Assembly (NCBI GenBank): GCA_900322215.1
Contig: ONYW01000002.1
Coordinates: 3,164 to 67,163, forward strand
DNA length: 64,000 nucleotides
From: an uncultured Eubacteriales bacterium
GTDB taxonomy: Bacteria > Bacillota > Clostridia > Christensenellales > CAG-917
Direction: 5' to 3'
Shown: one piece after another, positions 2,804 to 32,331 of the stretch
Numbering within the stretch: position 1 is the stretch's first letter
Layout: each line of letters starts with the position of its first letter
The notes under the pieces: model-generated
Told to the model about the DNA's origin: nothing
Seen by the model: only the letters and a program-made list of their open reading frames with translations
Databases searched by the model: none
Translations under genes and position numbers: made by a program

Positions 2804-4255
2804 CTATTCTCCTATAATCTTCTCAAGCAACGCAGACAGAGACCCCACCTGCTTCACCATGATCGTAAGCCCTTCGAGATAAATAAACAAAATCACAACG
2901 ATTGCAACCACAGGGATAATCAATCCCAGCATAGACTTCTTGTGCTTACGGGTGTATGAGAACAACAAAATTATCGGCGCAGCCACGATGAGCGGATCGC
3001 TTCCGCCAACGCCAGCCTCCAAAACAGCCTGCTCTGCAAGTAGCGCAAGCGACGTCACCGCCTCTTCAGTCGTTTCAACGTTGATTTCAGTCAGTGCGAC
3101 GGCAATCGTGAGCGCAACGTGGATTATCAAATCCAAAACGCCCGCAACCACCATTATGATTGCCGCAAACTTTGCAAACTGCCACGAATTCGCTTTCGTC
3201 TGCAAAAATTCGTTGTACTGCTCGTGCGTCTTTCCGCGCTTTCTGTATATGCGCTCTCTCATCTTGATGAACAAGGAAATGACGACGAACACAACGAAAG
3301 TCATAGGCGGTTTTGTCGTGAGAAGCGGAAATAGATATGGCGATATTCTGATTGTCCCAAACGCGCTGAGGAGTTTGAGTGTAAAACTTGCAATCTCATA
3401 CAAAATCGGCACAAGCGCAAGAAGCCTGAACCATACGATTTTGTTGCCTTGAAAATACTTCTTTGGACGATAAATAAGCCCGAACGCAAGCAAAGTGCAA
3501 AGGAACAAGTCGATGAAGATATTGAACGCCAAGTATCCACTCTGAGTGTTTGAAACAAGCAGTGCGTCAACAACTGCTATCGCACTCGCTCTGTCCGTTT
3601 CAAGCACAAATGCGGCAAACTCCGCAAGATAATGTTCGTGCGCAAGTATGAACAAAAGATAAACGACAATGCTTATTCCGCCATACAAAATGAGCATAGA
3701 CTTGAACGTCTTTGAACCGTTGAGAATGGTCGCAAACGTTGCCATAAGGAAGAGCGGCATCATGATGTCGCTTGCCATCTTCAAAACATCAGGAAACATC
3801 CCCAGTTTGCCACCGAGGTTTGAGTCCAGCTTCGCCCCTATTGAAAGCAACACGCCGATTTGTGCAACAATCAAAAACGCCCATGCGAGCATACGCAGAT
3901 GCATATACGACAAAGGCCCACGATATCTGATGTCGTTTTCAAGCGTGTATTCGTCAATCTTTCTGCGCTTTTTACGCTTTTTGCGTTTGCCACCCTCTTG
4001 CAACTCGCAAGGTTCGCCTGCACAAATCTCGTTTGGTGCAAGATTTTCGCTTGCGGGCGCTTCCGGTTGCTTAACGGCTTCACCTTCGGCGTCTTCTACC
4101 ACACCGAACTCCGTGCCTTCAAAATCAACCTCTTCTAAATGATTCGGCTCATCCAAAGGCAGATCGCTTTCCGCAGGGATTCTCAATTCTTCTTGCTGAA
4201 CATCAGATTCATTTTGTTCGTTCGGCATTATTTTTTCAAGTTCTTCAGTCATCAT
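2804..4255 (-). CDS. polytopic membrane protein of unknown function with acidic then poly-basic N-terminal region
   Basis: 483-aa ORF. About 100 N-terminal residues are rich in acidic residues and are followed by GGKRKKRKKRRK, then at least 8 hydrophobic segments. Its stop lies 1 nt from the K+ channel start. Confidence 0.6.
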   Translation of the reverse strand: MMTEELEKIMPNEQNESDVQQEELRIPAESDLPLDEPNHLEEVDFEGTEFGVVEDAEGEAVKQPEAPASENLAPNEICAGEPCELQEGGKRKKRKKRRKIDEYTLENDIRYRGPLSYMHLRMLAWAFLIVAQIGVLLSIGAKLDSNLGGKLGMFPDVLKMASDIMMPLFLMATFATILNGSKTFKSMLILYGGISIVVYLLFILAHEHYLAEFAAFVLETDRASAIAVVDALLVSNTQSGYLAFNIFIDLFLCTLLAFGLIYRPKKYFQGNKIVWFRLLALVPILYEIASFTLKLLSAFGTIRISPYLFPLLTTKPPMTFVVFVVISLFIKMRERIYRKRGKTHEQYNEFLQTKANSWQFAKFAAIIMVVAGVLDLIIHVALTIAVALTEINVETTEEAVTSLALLAEQAVLEAGVGGSDPLIVAAPIILLFSYTRKHKKSMLGLIIPVVAIVVILFIYLEGLTIMVKQVGSLSALLEKIIGE

Positions 4256-28090: not shown

Positions 28091-29200
28091 TTATTTTTGT
28101 ATAGATGACAATTTCAAATACTCGTTGATAAATCCGTCGAGATCCCCGTCCATAACAGCCTGTACGTTGCCTGTTTCATAGTTCGTGCGGTGGTCTTTGA
28201 CCATCGTGTACGGGCAAAAGACGTAGGAGCGGATTTGACTGCCCCACTCGATTTTTTTGAGTTGTCCGCTGATGGCGGCAGCCTCTTCTTCACGCTCGCG
28301 CTCGCGCTTTTCGATGAGTTTTGAGCGGAGCATTTGCATTGCGACTTCGCGGTTTTGGATTTGGCTGCGCTCGTTTTGGCAAGCGACGATTATGCCCGTC
28401 GGAATATGCGTGATACGGATAGCGCTCTCCGTCTTGTTGACGTGCTGTCCGCCTGCACCCGAGGAACGGTAGGTATCCACCTTGAGGTCTTCGGGGCGGA
28501 TTTCAATTTCCGACGTGTCGATGATTTCAGGCATAACTTCGAGCGACGCAAACGAGGTATGTCTTCTTGCGTTTGCGTCAAAAGGAGAAATGCGGACGAG
28601 TCTATGCACGCCCTTCTCCGCTTTGAGGTAGCCGTATGCGTTGTCCCCCTCGACTCTAAAAGTCACGCTCTTAATGCCCGCTTCGTCGCCTGCGAGAAAG
28701 TCGAGTTCCGTAAGAGTCCAACCCGTGCGCTCTACGTATCTTGTGTACATACGGTACAGCATAGAGCACCAGTCCTGCGCCTCCGTTCCGCCTGCGCCCG
28801 CATGGAGAGTGAGGATCGCGTTGAGGCTGTCATACTTACCGCAGAGAAGTGTGGAAAGTGACAGGCTTTCGACGTGTCCTGCAAGTTCCGTGATGCTTTC
28901 GACGAGATTTTCGTCCTCTTTTTCATCACCCTCGAGTTCGACTATATCGACCGTATCGGTCATATCGTCGATGCGCGCTATCATCTTTTCAAACTTTTGA
29001 ATTTTGCTTTGCAACTGGCTGATTTCTTTGGACACCTTCTTTGCGTTGTCGGTATCGTTCCAAAAGCCATCGGCGTTTTGTTCTTCTTCAAGTTCCTTGA
29101 TTCTTGCGCGGCACTTGTCAGGGTTTATGCTCTCGTATGCGCGCACCATTTCGGCTCGCATATCTTTCAGTTTGTTTCTTTGTTCGTTATAATCTATCAT
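28091..29200 (-). CDS. prfB: peptide chain release factor 2, encoded in a single frame
   Basis: 369 aa with SPF (RISPFD) and GGQ (SGAGGQHVN) motifs. The N-terminus is contiguous, with no in-frame UGA frameshift site. Confidence 0.95.
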   Translation of the reverse strand: MIDYNEQRNKLKDMRAEMVRAYESINPDKCRARIKELEEEQNADGFWNDTDNAKKVSKEISQLQSKIQKFEKMIARIDDMTDTVDIVELEGDEKEDENLVESITELAGHVESLSLSTLLCGKYDSLNAILTLHAGAGGTEAQDWCSMLYRMYTRYVERTGWTLTELDFLAGDEAGIKSVTFRVEGDNAYGYLKAEKGVHRLVRISPFDANARRHTSFASLEVMPEIIDTSEIEIRPEDLKVDTYRSSGAGGQHVNKTESAIRITHIPTGIIVACQNERSQIQNREVAMQMLRSKLIEKREREREEEAAAISGQLKKIEWGSQIRSYVFCPYTMVKDHRTNYETGNVQAVMDGDLDGFINEYLKLSSIQK

Positions 29201-29287
29201 AAATTACCTTTCATCATTTCGAGCAAACAAAATATTCACATTCCTTCAAAACATAATCCTTGTTTGCTCTCATCGGTTTTGTTGTTC

Positions 29288-29584
29288 AACCTTAAATGCA
29301 ACGCCCCTTCCTGCTCCGCCAGTTTTCCCCACCGCGGAACAAGCCGAACACAAGTTGCTCACTTCTAAGGAATAAACAACATTGTCGTTCGCAACGTTGC
29401 TATTCCCTACAAGAGTGTATTACTCGCTCCGGGGACACCGAGTCGGCGCTCTAAAATCCGGTTTCCTCTATTCTTTGCCACTTAGCCTTTGGGACGCTCC
29501 GCAACAGAATGTCCCAAAGTCTCGTACTGAGTGCAGACCGAGGCACTCCGGGACTCCGCCATTGCGGAGTCGGTTCCGTCTTTG
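29288..29584 (-). ncRNA. unclassified ~300-nt structured RNA-like element, copy 1 (between secA and prfB)
   Basis: Reverse complement aligns with 45088-45388. Closing helix cggaac/gttccg, a perfect 8-bp hairpin gactccgc/gcggagtc, and two variable hairpins with compensatory changes. The strand is inferred from gene context. Confidence 0.6.
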
Positions 29585-29652
29585 AACATGAGTTTCATTA
29601 AAATCAGGACTTTATCCACTTATTTTATAGTTGTAAAGTGGCGGTTTTGCAA

Positions 29653-32331
29653 TTAACGCTTTTTATTTCTTATGAAACTCCTTGAGTTTGCTTGGCTCTT
29701 AGCGGCGTTCATTGCACGTTCTTGCTGCTCAGCCTTTTTGCGTTTTTGTTCCGCGACTTCGCTGTAATACGGCATCTTCATAAGCGCGGAAGCCGTGCCC
29801 GTGTGAATGCTGTTTACCATCTCGTCAAACATCTCCCAACCTTCCTCGCGGTAGGCGATGACAGGATCGCGTTGACCGAGTCCGCGGAGTCCGATACCGC
29901 GACGCAACACGTCCATAGACTCTATATGGTCTATCCACTTTGCGTCGACGTTTTTGAGAAGCACGAGGCGCTCTACCGCACCGAAGTCTATGCCGTTCTC
30001 TTTTGCGTCCTCAGCCTTTGCCTCATAATCTTTAAGCGCCACGTCCATGACCGCTTCTTTGAGTTTGTTCACGTTGAAGCAGGAGCAAAGGTCCACAGTC
30101 ATGACGTCCGAGCCTTCGGGGAGCATCCTGCGTTCGAGTTCTTGGTTGAATGCCGCGTAGTCCCACGTTTGATAGTCGACTTTGTAGTTCGCGTGCGCGG
30201 AGATAATCTCCTCCGCAAGGTCGTCTATCATGTCGAGGATTTGATCGTGTACGTCAAGCCCGTCAAGCACCTTTGCGCGCTCTTTGTAGATGATTTCGCG
30301 CTGTGCGTTTATGACGTCGTCATAGGAGAGAACCTGCTTTCTTGCGGCATAGTTCCTACCCTCGACAAGGCGTTGCGCCCTTTCGATTTGCTTTGTAATC
30401 ATTCTGTTGGAGATCGCCTCGTCAGGCGGAAGATTGAACATGGTCGCAACAGATTTGAGCCTGTCTCCGCCAAAGATTCTTGCCACGTCGTCCTCGAGCG
30501 AGATGTAGAACACGGAACTTCCCGGATCGCCTTGACGACCTGCACGGCCTCTGAGCTGGTTGTCTATTCGGCGAGATTCGTGTCTCTCCGTGCCGATGAT
30601 GTGAAGACCGCCCGCTTCGATGACCTTCTCTTTTTCCGCGTCGCAGTTTGCCTTGAACGCGTCGTAGTGATGCTTGAAGACTTCCTTTGCCTTGATGACT
30701 TCGGGATCTTCCGACTTCAAAGGAGAGACCGCCTTTTCAATGATTTCAAGCGTATAGCCGTCCTTCTCCATCTTTTGTCTCGCCTGGTACTCCGGGTTTC
30801 CGCCGAGCATGATATCCGTACCACGGCCCGCCATGTTGGTTGCAATTGTCACGGCGTTCAGTTTGCCTGCTTGCGCGATGATAGCGGACTCTTGCTTGTG
30901 GTTCTTTGCGTTGAGTACGTGATGATATATGCCCTTCCTGTTCAGGATTTTACTGAGGTTTTCGGATTTTTCAACGCTCACCGTGCCGACGAGTATCGGT
31001 TGTCCCGTCGCGTGATGGTCGAGAATGTCTTGAATGATCGCGGTGATTTTGCCGTCTATCGTCGTGTAGATTTGATCCTGTTCGTCATATCTTTGCGACG
31101 GCTTGTTGGACGGAATCGTCACGACGTCCAAGGCGTATATGTCCTTAAACTCGTCCTCTTCCGTCTTCGCTGTACCCGTCATACCGCTGAGTTTTTTGTA
31201 CATACGGAAGAAGTTTTGGAAGGTGATCGTCGCGATCGTACGGTTCTCGTCACGTATAGCGACGTGTTCTTTTGCTTCGATCGCTTGGTGCAAGCCCTCC
31301 GAAAATCTGCGGCCTATCATGACGCGCCCGGTAAACTCGTCAACGATGAGCACTTCGCCCTCGCTCACGATATAGTTGATGTCGCGCTTCATGATATAGT
31401 TTGCTTTGAGAGCCTGTTGAATGTGGTTGTTGAGTTCGATATTGTCGATATCCGTGAGGTTGTCAACCTTGAAGAACTTCTCCGCCTCGGCAACGCCCTT
31501 GTCCGTGAGCATAACCGTTCTTTCCTTTTCGTTGATAGTGAAATCGGCGTCGTCGGGGATTTCCTCCTGCTTCTTCATAATCTTGCTCTCAGGCTCGCTG
31601 ACCACAAAGCCTTTGCACTTCTTCGCAAAGCGATCGGCTTGAATGTAGAGTTCGTTGGATTTGTCCCCCCTGCCCGAGATGATAAGCGGAGTCCTTGCCT
31701 CGTCGATAAGGATAGAGTCAACTTCGTCGACAATTGCAAAGTTCAATTCCCTTTGCAACTTTTGTGCCTTGGACGTTATCATATTGTCGCGAAGGAAGTC
31801 AAAACCGAGTTCGTTGTTCGTGCAATAGGTGATGTCGCACGCATACTGCCTTTGCTTGACGGCAGGGTGCATTTGCGGGACGATGATACCGACCGTAAGC
31901 CCCAAAAAGGTGTAGAGTTTGCCCATCCAGTTTGCGTCACGGACAGTCAAATAGTCGTTGACTGTGACGACGTGCACGCCCTTGCCCTCCAAAGCGTTGA
32001 GGTATGCGGGCATGGTTGCGACAAGAGTCTTACCTTCACCGGTTGCCATCTCGGCGATTCTGCCCTGGTGGAGTGCGATACCGCCCATGATTTGCACGAA
32101 GAATGGACGAAGTCCGAGGACTCTGTCCGCCGCCTCGCGACATACGGCAAAAGCGTCGGGCAAAATATCGTCGAGTTTCTCGCCGTTTGCGAGGCGATCT
32201 TTGAGCGCGGGCGTCATTGCCCTGAGCTCGTCGTCCGTCATCGCCTTGTACTTTTCGGAAAGGGCGTCGACTTTCTCCGCAATTTTTTTGAGTTTTTTAA
32301 CCCTTGATTTGTTTTCGTCAAAGAGTGCCAT
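29653..32331 (-). CDS. secA: preprotein translocase ATPase SecA
   Basis: 892 aa. MATGEGKT Walker A, the DEVDSILIDEARTPLIISG motif, and GTERHESRRIDNQLRGRAGRQGDPG. Confidence 0.97.
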   Translation of the reverse strand: MALFDENKSRVKKLKKIAEKVDALSEKYKAMTDDELRAMTPALKDRLANGEKLDDILPDAFAVCREAADRVLGLRPFFVQIMGGIALHQGRIAEMATGEGKTLVATMPAYLNALEGKGVHVVTVNDYLTVRDANWMGKLYTFLGLTVGIIVPQMHPAVKQRQYACDITYCTNNELGFDFLRDNMITSKAQKLQRELNFAIVDEVDSILIDEARTPLIISGRGDKSNELYIQADRFAKKCKGFVVSEPESKIMKKQEEIPDDADFTINEKERTVMLTDKGVAEAEKFFKVDNLTDIDNIELNNHIQQALKANYIMKRDINYIVSEGEVLIVDEFTGRVMIGRRFSEGLHQAIEAKEHVAIRDENRTIATITFQNFFRMYKKLSGMTGTAKTEEDEFKDIYALDVVTIPSNKPSQRYDEQDQIYTTIDGKITAIIQDILDHHATGQPILVGTVSVEKSENLSKILNRKGIYHHVLNAKNHKQESAIIAQAGKLNAVTIATNMAGRGTDIMLGGNPEYQARQKMEKDGYTLEIIEKAVSPLKSEDPEVIKAKEVFKHHYDAFKANCDAEKEKVIEAGGLHIIGTERHESRRIDNQLRGRAGRQGDPGSSVFYISLEDDVARIFGGDRLKSVATMFNLPPDEAISNRMITKQIERAQRLVEGRNYAARKQVLSYDDVINAQREIIYKERAKVLDGLDVHDQILDMIDDLAEEIISAHANYKVDYQTWDYAAFNQELERRMLPEGSDVMTVDLCSCFNVNKLKEAVMDVALKDYEAKAEDAKENGIDFGAVERLVLLKNVDAKWIDHIESMDVLRRGIGLRGLGQRDPVIAYREEGWEMFDEMVNSIHTGTASALMKMPYYSEVAEQKRKKAEQQERAMNAAKSQANSRSFIRNKKR

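Follow-up and report, generated by a model that had tools for sequence, protein, structure and literature searches.

Two intergenic segments of a Christensenellales genome that best fit a new family of dispersed, ornate structured RNA repeats

The window analysed here is the whole stretch of 64,000 nucleotides (nt) spanning positions 3,164 to 67,163 of contig ONYW01000002.1 (assembly GCA_900322215.1), from an uncultured Eubacteriales bacterium of the Christensenellales, and it carries two related intergenic segments of about 300 nt. Copy 1 stands in the gene order comFC, secA, copy 1 and prfB, all on the minus strand, and copy 2 is found between rpoB on the minus strand and a 79-amino-acid (aa) S4-domain gene on the plus strand. 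Both segments are best explained as members of a new, previously uncatalogued family of dispersed, ornate structured RNA repeats. The original prediction, made from the sequence of the window, had described a two-copy structured RNA and tied it to translation termination and rescue genes; its account of the neighbourhood, with secA and prfB around copy 1, rpoB and an S4 RqcP-like gene around copy 2, and comFC upstream, proved accurate. The features of the two loci are as follows.

28091..29200, minus strand: prfB (RF2), downstream of copy 1; Pfam PCRF and RF-1; a single 369-aa open reading frame (ORF)
29286..29586, minus strand: copy 1 core element, TTCAAAGACGGAAC to TTTAAGGTT; family-profile nhmmer E = 2e-39
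29587..29641, minus strand: copy 1 5' extension, hairpin CCACTT...AAGTGG (29616-29641) plus AATGAAACTCATG
29624..29652, minus strand: promoter-like TTGCAA-17-TATAAA, immediately after the secA stop codon; read from sequence
29653..32331, minus strand: secA, upstream of copy 1; identified by Pfam; without the C-terminal SEC-C motif
44934..45460, no strand assigned: strain-variable part of the rpoB to S4-gene spacer, containing copy 2; from strain comparison
45012..45086, plus strand: copy 2 5' extension, homologous to the family upstream module in a by-eye comparison; motif ATTCRAAGRCG three times
45087..45389, plus strand: copy 2 core element, TTCGAAGACGGAAC to TTTAGGGTT; family-profile nhmmer E = 1.2e-43
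45443-45472, plus strand: promoter-like TTGCTT-18-TATAAT of the S4 gene, downstream of copy 2; from sequence
45479..45718, plus strand: 79-aa S4-domain (Hsp15/RqcP-like) gene, downstream of copy 2; Pfam S4

Two related segments and their family

The two copies (29286-29586, minus, and 45087-45389, plus) align from end to end, as predicted, with 84.7% identity over 313 nt in blastn (E = 3e-90) and a concordant MAFFT alignment. Two blocks of 22 and 26 nt are identical between them and occur exactly twice each in the 64-kb window; two matches to these blocks were obtained in 0 of 100 shuffles of the window. The internal segments that are replaced between the copies had been reported to remain hairpins with compensated differences, and an inverted-repeat search in both copies upheld this: 29484-29495/29511-29522 in copy 1 corresponds to 45152-45162/45180-45190 in copy 2, and the second replaced segment of copy 2 forms the hairpin 45280-45289/45314-45323. 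Both an 8-bp hairpin, GACTCCGC/GCGGAGTC, and a CGGAACC/GGTTCCG pairing are common to the two copies. Relative to shuffled sequence, the fold of copy 1 is far better (z = -5.3) and that of copy 2 moderately so (z = -2.1). The conservation is not protein-like, as the prediction had also stated, since three frames are needed to follow copy 1 in a translated comparison of the window copies.

Judged against other family members, the true element extends further 5' than first reported, by about 40-75 nt of homologous upstream sequence. The 5' extension of copy 1 appears to resemble the "hairpin plus AACGAAAACTCATTC" module of the family, in an unscored comparison. Direct repeats at copy 2 link 45043-45064 with 45075-45096 and 45012-45029 with 45395-45412.

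Beyond the window, one genome per GTDB species was scanned with a two-block pattern derived from the three copies then known. This returned 56 loci, 32 of which, from 12 genomes, were confirmed by profile search; the remaining 24 are consistent with the approximately 17 chance matches estimated. The host genomes are labelled Christensenella sp., Clostridia or Clostridiales bacterium, Firmicutes CAG:238 and similar. Iterated nhmmer gave 57 hits, amounting to about 40 distinct full-length copies, so that the element is not confined to two copies as originally described. The family is spread through Christensenella-like Clostridia of gut and rumen, with 2-6 or more copies per genome from the stringent pattern alone and a second copy at most 8 kb away in about 9 of the 32 loci; a rough extrapolation suggests tens of copies per genome. 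No copy came up in phage, plasmid or IMG/VR collections (one chance match fell inside a coding region), a scan of JGI metagenomes with an exact 19-mer gave two chance matches, and a literature search on Christensenella non-coding RNA (ncRNA) found nothing relevant.

The element measures about 300-340 nt, or about 380 nt with its 5' module. Each genome holds many diverged copies, grouped in distinct subfamilies, and the window copies form with two copies of Christensenella sp. UBA1260 a diverged subfamily distinguished by an extra internal hairpin. Several copies carry a duplicated 3' module, and one locus (L065) holds an exact tandem pair with a 327-nt period. The latter lies directly downstream of, and convergent with, a 23S-5S rRNA operon (L065:407-4234). 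Upstream of about 8 of approximately 38 copies stands an AT-rich (AATTAATAAT)n module with a GC hairpin, and a weak promoter-like TTAATA/TTTATA-17-AATAAT occupies the same position before the 5' GC hairpin, on the element strand, in the three copies examined.

A second, REP-like repeat (AGATTGCCACGCTTGCGCTCGCAATGACA and variants) also recurs intergenically in element-bearing genomes (for example L080:12230-12260). Like the AT-rich (AATTAATAAT)n module, it often abuts the 5' GC hairpin of the element (L037, L051, L025, L056, L066 and L028), and REP-like repeat, AT-rich module and element build up mosaic repeat clusters.

Fold and covariation

The fold of the family is conserved through compensatory changes. 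Eight to nine helices are proposed, comprising the hairpins P2, P4, P5, P8 and P9, the long-range pairings P6 and P6b, and a subfamily-specific insertion hairpin; five of them passed shuffle and slide controls. In the window copies, where P6 was placed through alignment to the family, the parts are these.

29552..29571, minus strand: P2 hairpin of copy 1, GACTCCGC / GCGGAGTC
45102..45120, plus strand: P2 hairpin of copy 2, the same family helix as in copy 1
29487..29519, minus strand: P4 hairpin of copy 1, CTTTGGGAC / GTCCCAAAG; inverted repeat I1
45153..45189, plus strand: P4 hairpin of copy 2, CATTTTGGAC / GTCCAAAATG; inverted repeat I1, 100% complementary
29441..29480, minus strand: P5-equivalent hairpin and nearly invariant junction GAGCGCCGACT of copy 1; longest inter-copy identical block
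45197..45234, plus strand: P5-equivalent hairpin and junction GAGCGCCGACT of copy 2; longest inter-copy identical block
29326..29435, minus strand: 3' domain of copy 1, closed by long-range P6 (TCCCC 29431-29435 with GGGGA 29326-29330)
29354-29406, minus strand: subfamily-specific hairpin inside the 3' domain of copy 1
45240..45351, plus strand: 3' domain of copy 2, closed by P6 (TCCCC 45240-45244 with GGGGA 45347-45351) and enclosing the hairpin 45280-45289/45314-45323
29304..29322, minus strand: P8 mini-hairpin (CTG...CAG) of copy 1, followed by the purine tract GGAAGGGG
45355..45374, plus strand: P8 mini-hairpin and purine tract GGAAGGGG of copy 2

The hairpins P2, P4, P5 and P9 were assessed on a plain, unfitted MAFFT alignment of 31 copies (A4). 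In this alignment 92.7% of their cells are paired and 10 pairs show change on both sides, values reached by 0 of 500 shuffles, and slid controls gave 24-56% pairing. P2 (A4 columns 81-100) is paired in 99.5% of cells, with both-sided change in 3 pairs; P4 (columns 142-173) shows such change in 4 pairs, and its two window versions differ by two compensated pairs. Covariation across about 30 homologs, the check that had been proposed, supports the predicted hairpins. The junction GAGTGCCGACT is invariant family-wide.

For the 3' domain, a covariance model of 137 positions was trained on 13 copies of two subtypes and recovered 20 copies outside the training set, 18 of them full-length matches in the other subtypes (E 1e-13 to 1e-23) and two weaker; the 3' half of copy 2 matches it weakly (45221-45413, E = 0.21). 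On the model alignment P6 and P6b covary strongly, with pairs such as CG:16/UA:16 and CG:17/UA:12. Variants read from the sequences include TTCCCC/GGGGAA, TCTCCC/GGGAGA and TCTTCC/GGAAGA for P6, and TTGC/GCAA, CCGC/GTGG and CTTC/GAAG for P6b, and P8 appears by eye as CCC/GGG, CCGG/CCGG, CTG/CAG or CAC/GTG across subtypes. The conserved GGAAGGGG tract could possibly form a pseudoknot with the P5 loop.

Among the supported helices, G·U outnumbers A·C by 82 to 32, and the folded strand is therefore the minus strand in copy 1, as for prfB, and the plus strand in copy 2, as for the S4 gene. A structured non-coding element read in these orientations is what had been predicted. The same prediction gave both copies a closing helix and the 8-bp hairpin; both are present in the two copies, although the closing helix CGGAACC/GGTTCCG is not general: it is strong in the subfamily of the window copies, may form in two further subtypes and is unsupported in the rest. 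P7a is not general either: of its four pairs, one is unpaired in 10 and another in 18 of about 31 cells. Poor structures came both from RNAalifold on MAFFT alignments and from a consensus of averaged base-pair probabilities; the subtypes differ by single-base register shifts.

Genomic setting, turnover and competing explanations

The genes around the copies are housekeeping genes with no relation to one another, and most copies follow immediately on a gene of the same orientation or are placed within an operon. Upstream genes share the orientation of the element in 24 cases versus 8 (binomial p ~0.007), and the downstream gene, in 35 cases, is co-oriented in 15 and convergent in 20; 12 copies occupy convergent spacers and 4 divergent ones. 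The downstream neighbours share no theme, including argS, glnS, dnaE, pfk, an ADH and DUF1846. Within operons, the element is found in the glg operon (glgD, element, glgA) and between DUF1846 and pepF, co-oriented and with spacers of 12-60 nt. Since GC skew shows no sign switch between the two oppositely oriented window copies, orientation follows transcription and not replication, and a replication-strand explanation was rejected.

Close relatives also differ through gain and loss of copies. Relatives with an RF2 of 84-91% identity have no copy 1; in them secA and prfB are 0-106 nt apart and the synteny rpoC-metK-recD2-(comFC)-secA-prfB-tsaD is kept. Copy 1 is accordingly a lineage-specific insertion in the secA-prfB spacer, one that would have become part of the prfB leader. 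Its transcription together with prfB could start from the promoter-like TTGCAA-17-TATAAA; a promoter scan reported a nearby weaker match. Because RF2 is read as a single 369-aa ORF without interruption, this prfB does not have the programmed +1 frameshift site that is common in its bacterial counterparts. On the other side of copy 1, the 3' end of secA (29653-29816, minus) is without the SEC-C zinc-binding motif (CPCGSG..KYKNCCG) found in relatives: homology to these breaks off some 140-160 nt ahead of the stop codon, and a basic tail of different sequence takes its place. Possibly the secA 3' end was replaced in the same event that introduced copy 1.

Strains encoding an identical S4 protein, whose match to NCBIfam Hsp15 falls below the cut-off, have no copy 2; in them 44934-45460 is replaced by other cassettes. 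These carry a 637-aa ORF, a 381-aa ORF or a Phd/Doc (Fic) toxin-antitoxin pair (L002:594-2982, L006:1-1510, L009:1-657), and the 637-aa ORF has no Pfam, NCBIfam or PADLOC match. At the position of copy 2, such strains show an imperfect hairpin of about 125 nt (L002:2826-2975, also L006 and L008; z = -5.85) without an Rfam match, which is probably another small palindromic repeat. In the window itself, a 353-aa Fic/DOC-domain protein (47415-48476) is encoded just downstream of ispDF, with weak PADLOC matches to SoFic and PDC-S04.

A diverged homolog in one relative (L016-L019) lies between tsaD and an L7Ae gene, antisense to all its neighbours; spacers with and without the element are too diverged there for a comparison of filled and empty sites. 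Retention is seen as well. Two species whose flanking proteins are 96% and 80% identical (L046/L064) share the position and orientation of the element; their copies are 80.7% identical and show a compensated P6 change, TCTCCC/GGGAGA versus TCTTCC/GGAAGA, which suggests selection on the fold at an individual locus.

Given this scatter, the element is not a switch dedicated to neighbouring translation genes. We see roughly an even chance that it plays a structural part in cis in host transcripts and at the same time spreads in a semi-selfish manner through duplication and recombination. The element would be transcribed within host mRNAs, perhaps from a weak promoter of its own in copies with the AT-rich 5' module, and its RNA would fold into a compact multi-helix structure serving as a cis-acting structural module. 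Such a module might block exonucleases or set processing or termination points, thereby separating the fates of neighbouring cistrons. Persistence and spread as a semi-selfish repeat would proceed via duplication and recombination, without a classical transposase, a route to which tandem units and imperfect terminal direct repeats point. Copy 2 itself occupies a hypervariable spot upstream of the promoter-like site of the S4 gene.

Several observations pull against this proposal. The orientation bias is moderate, and the case for transcription and a cis role is drawn solely from position and orientation. The promoter-like TTAATA-17-AATAAT upstream of about 8 copies fits independent RNA genes equally well. 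The search pattern demands two conserved motifs, so the sample of copies is biased towards intact ones, and gene conversion among copies could mimic an in-place compensated change. The fold is only partly solved, with P7 and the 5'/3' closing helix restricted to some subtypes. Finally, it is more elaborate and more conserved than an exonuclease block needs, which hints at a more specific function. That the family constitutes a new class of ornate bacterial RNA, itself a functional or mobile unit, seems to us quite unlikely. One possible variant is a self-processing, ribozyme-like module that excises a unit-length RNA from operon transcripts, a possibility in line with the redundant ends, the roughly 327-nt tandem units and the invariance of the junctions; another is an RNA partner of an as-yet unidentified protein machine that spreads the element through Christensenellales genomes.

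Rather unlikely, although much of the turnover would suit it, is a mobile element that is non-autonomous and depends on its RNA or single-stranded DNA fold, either to be mobilised or to guide a protein whose gene lies elsewhere in the genome. Orphan omega-RNA-like or PATE-like IS200/IS605 units, a trans-mobilised retroelement or a unit of a site-specific recombinase would be examples. Differences in presence between close relatives and strains, the many diverged copies in distinct subfamilies, the tandems and duplicated 3' modules with imperfect terminal direct repeats, and a GC-rich hairpin at a fixed distance upstream of many copies, recalling hairpin-adjacent inserters, all speak for mobility, as does covariation mostly between subfamilies, which selection on master copies would produce. 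Yet the 8-20 kb around about 45 copies show no recurrent transposase, TnpB/IscB, nuclease, reverse transcriptase or recombinase, and no Rfam HEARO or IS605-orfB RNA match was obtained. Within subtypes both flanks stay conserved as far as the boundary, beyond which the genomic sequence is unrelated, and no copy-specific guide-like segment was seen at either end across the family. In neither window copy does an inverted repeat join the ends, the hairpins being internal, and target-site duplications are not consistent: copy 2 is flanked by a direct repeat of 18 nt, imperfect but exact over 8 nt, whose 3' member aligns with internal family sequence, together with a duplicated 5' motif, and copy 1 has neither a flanking direct repeat nor a duplicated 5' motif. 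These results also speak against a plain miniature inverted-repeat transposable element, which the prediction had named as its own refutation. The retention of L046/L064 with a change compensated in place further opposes mobility, and the unswitched GC skew opposes a replication-strand-specific single-stranded-DNA mechanism. Independent trans-acting ncRNA genes are unlikely; each would have a promoter within the AT-rich 5' module, start with a GC hairpin as protection and act via a protein partner or base pairing. The recurrent promoter-like hexamers in three copies, the good TTGCAA-17-TATAAA upstream of copy 1, terminator-like hairpins after several copies, the elaborate conserved fold and the ortholog retained between species are all in keeping with such genes. 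They are opposed by the restriction of the AT-rich module to about 8 of approximately 38 copies, by the many copies that sit 12-60 nt from co-oriented operon genes and leave no room for promoter or terminator, and by the conserved 45 nt directly upstream of the core, which show no sigma-70-like hexamers. Rapid gain and loss is a further point against them, and tens of diverged paralogs are unusual for a trans-acting RNA.

Two remaining explanations concern the neighbouring genes and the opposite strand. The tie proposed by the original prediction, a riboswitch-like, possibly raiA-class, cis-regulatory leader of translation termination or rescue genes, draws on both window copies being co-oriented with, and upstream of, prfB and the S4-domain RqcP/Hsp15-like gene. 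It is nevertheless very improbable and did not survive comparison: neither raiA nor any other Rfam family matches, relatives have no element upstream of prfB, identical-S4 strains have no copy 2, a promoter-like site belonging to the S4 gene itself follows copy 2, and at other loci the genes downstream are unrelated to one another, or convergent with the element (20 of 35). An antisense gene for a small protein, for its part, is scarcely credible. An antisense stretch of at least 240 nt without a stop codon exists in 31 of 38 copies, and 289 distinct hypothetical proteins have been called over the element in a database of 5.8 billion protein sequences; the open frames arise because the sense strand is purine-rich. 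Against a protein, 464 of 518 gap runs are not multiples of three and 404 are single-base indels, which of three frames is open in the same DNA varies from copy to copy, no conserved Met or start codon was found across copies, and Pfam gave no match, none of the 289 proteins having a domain. The ORF clusters have mostly 1-3 members, and the helices covary with G·U on the sense strand. An antisense coding gene was hence discarded, as no reading frame, start codon or domain holds across homologs. Long spurious ORFs over the element include 45010-45381 (minus) and 28874-29368 (plus) in the window and L016:12600-12992.

Significance and relation to known RNAs and repeats

Few large bacterial RNAs combine an elaborate fold with support from covariation, and every one of them (OLE, ROOL, GOLLD, HEARO/omega RNA, raiA) has led to new biology. 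The present family adds an RNA of about 330 nt that is absent from Rfam 15 and occurs in many diverged copies per genome of the Christensenellales, a health-associated and poorly studied clade of gut and rumen. It sits in core operons (secA-prfB, glg) and beside aminoacyl-tRNA synthetase genes and rRNA operons. Should it act in cis on mRNA, the small genomes of this clade would possess a widespread level of operon regulation that annotation does not show; a mobile or catalytic function would make it an RNA element of a new type. Furthermore, the element has given databases hundreds of hypothetical proteins that are spurious and deserve to be flagged as an annotation artefact, and it marks strain-variable sites useful for typing.

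Rfam 15 (4227 families) was searched with the window, both copies and six loci with typical members. At E <= 10 nothing relevant overlapped either copy: copy 2 had zero hits, and the copy 1 region had three at chance level, two in the downstream flank, with RsmY (13.7 bits, cut-off 57) touching the first 35 nt. The six loci gave nothing at E <= 0.1. As far as covariance models tell, raiA, HEARO, ROOL, GOLLD, OLE, 6S, SRP and T-box, as well as group I/II introns and known small ribozymes, are thus excluded, and the check suggested for raiA, HEARO, ROOL, 6S and SRP brought up nothing relevant. A scan at gathering scores had zero hits in the whole 64 kb, despite ribosomal-protein operons, metK and aminoacyl-tRNA-related genes, which in Firmicutes commonly have leaders or riboswitches.

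The raiA motif RNA, a structured Firmicutes ncRNA of about 200 nt, is often near comFC, which is likewise in the window; it is single-copy, whereas the present family is multi-copy and its position is not conserved in relatives, where the comFC-secA-prfB synteny is without the element. HEARO (the IscB omega RNA, RF02033) and TnpB omega RNAs share several traits with the family, being ornate, 200-300 nt long, multi-copy, sometimes without an adjacent ORF, and associated with mobility; the family differs in having no covariance-model match, no IscB/TnpB near about 45 copies and no guide-like segment. With OLE, ROOL and GOLLD it shares a complex, covariation-supported fold and occurrence mainly in Firmicutes and metagenomes, but these exceed 500 nt and are present in 1-2 copies per genome or phage-borne, whereas the family is about 330 nt long, has many copies and is absent from viral collections. 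Class C (IIC) group II introns are small structured RNAs that settle just downstream of gene-end hairpins, in sense orientation and possibly in tandem. In contrast to these introns, which measure at least about 400 nt, the element has about 300-330 nt, no Rfam match to domain V/VI or D1-D4, no GUGYG...AY ends and no intron-encoded protein.

A close parallel exists in the BOX elements of Streptococcus pneumoniae and the enterobacterial ERIC/IRU elements, which are repeats scattered over intergenic regions and folding as RNA. The family resembles BOX and ERIC in its many intergenic and intercistronic copies, its modularity, its gain and loss between strains, the lack of a gene of its own and its compensatory RNA structure. 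BOX and ERIC are co-transcribed with their neighbours, for which the evidence in the family is positional only (24 versus 8 co-oriented upstream genes; operon spacers of 12-60 nt). While these repeats are long imperfect palindromes or simple stem-loops with inverted-repeat-like ends, the present element has no terminal inverted repeats and is multi-domain, with eight to nine proposed helices, long-range ones included, and invariant junctions; there is no sequence similarity, and the host clade is another. Set beside the BOX/ERIC/REP kind as a whole, the family thus agrees in having many copies without a gene of their own and a presence that varies among relatives, and departs from it in not being a simple stem-loop. 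The dispersed structured intergenic repeat is a kind already known from BOX and ERIC; what is new here is the multi-domain fold, the ends without inverted repeats and the host clade.

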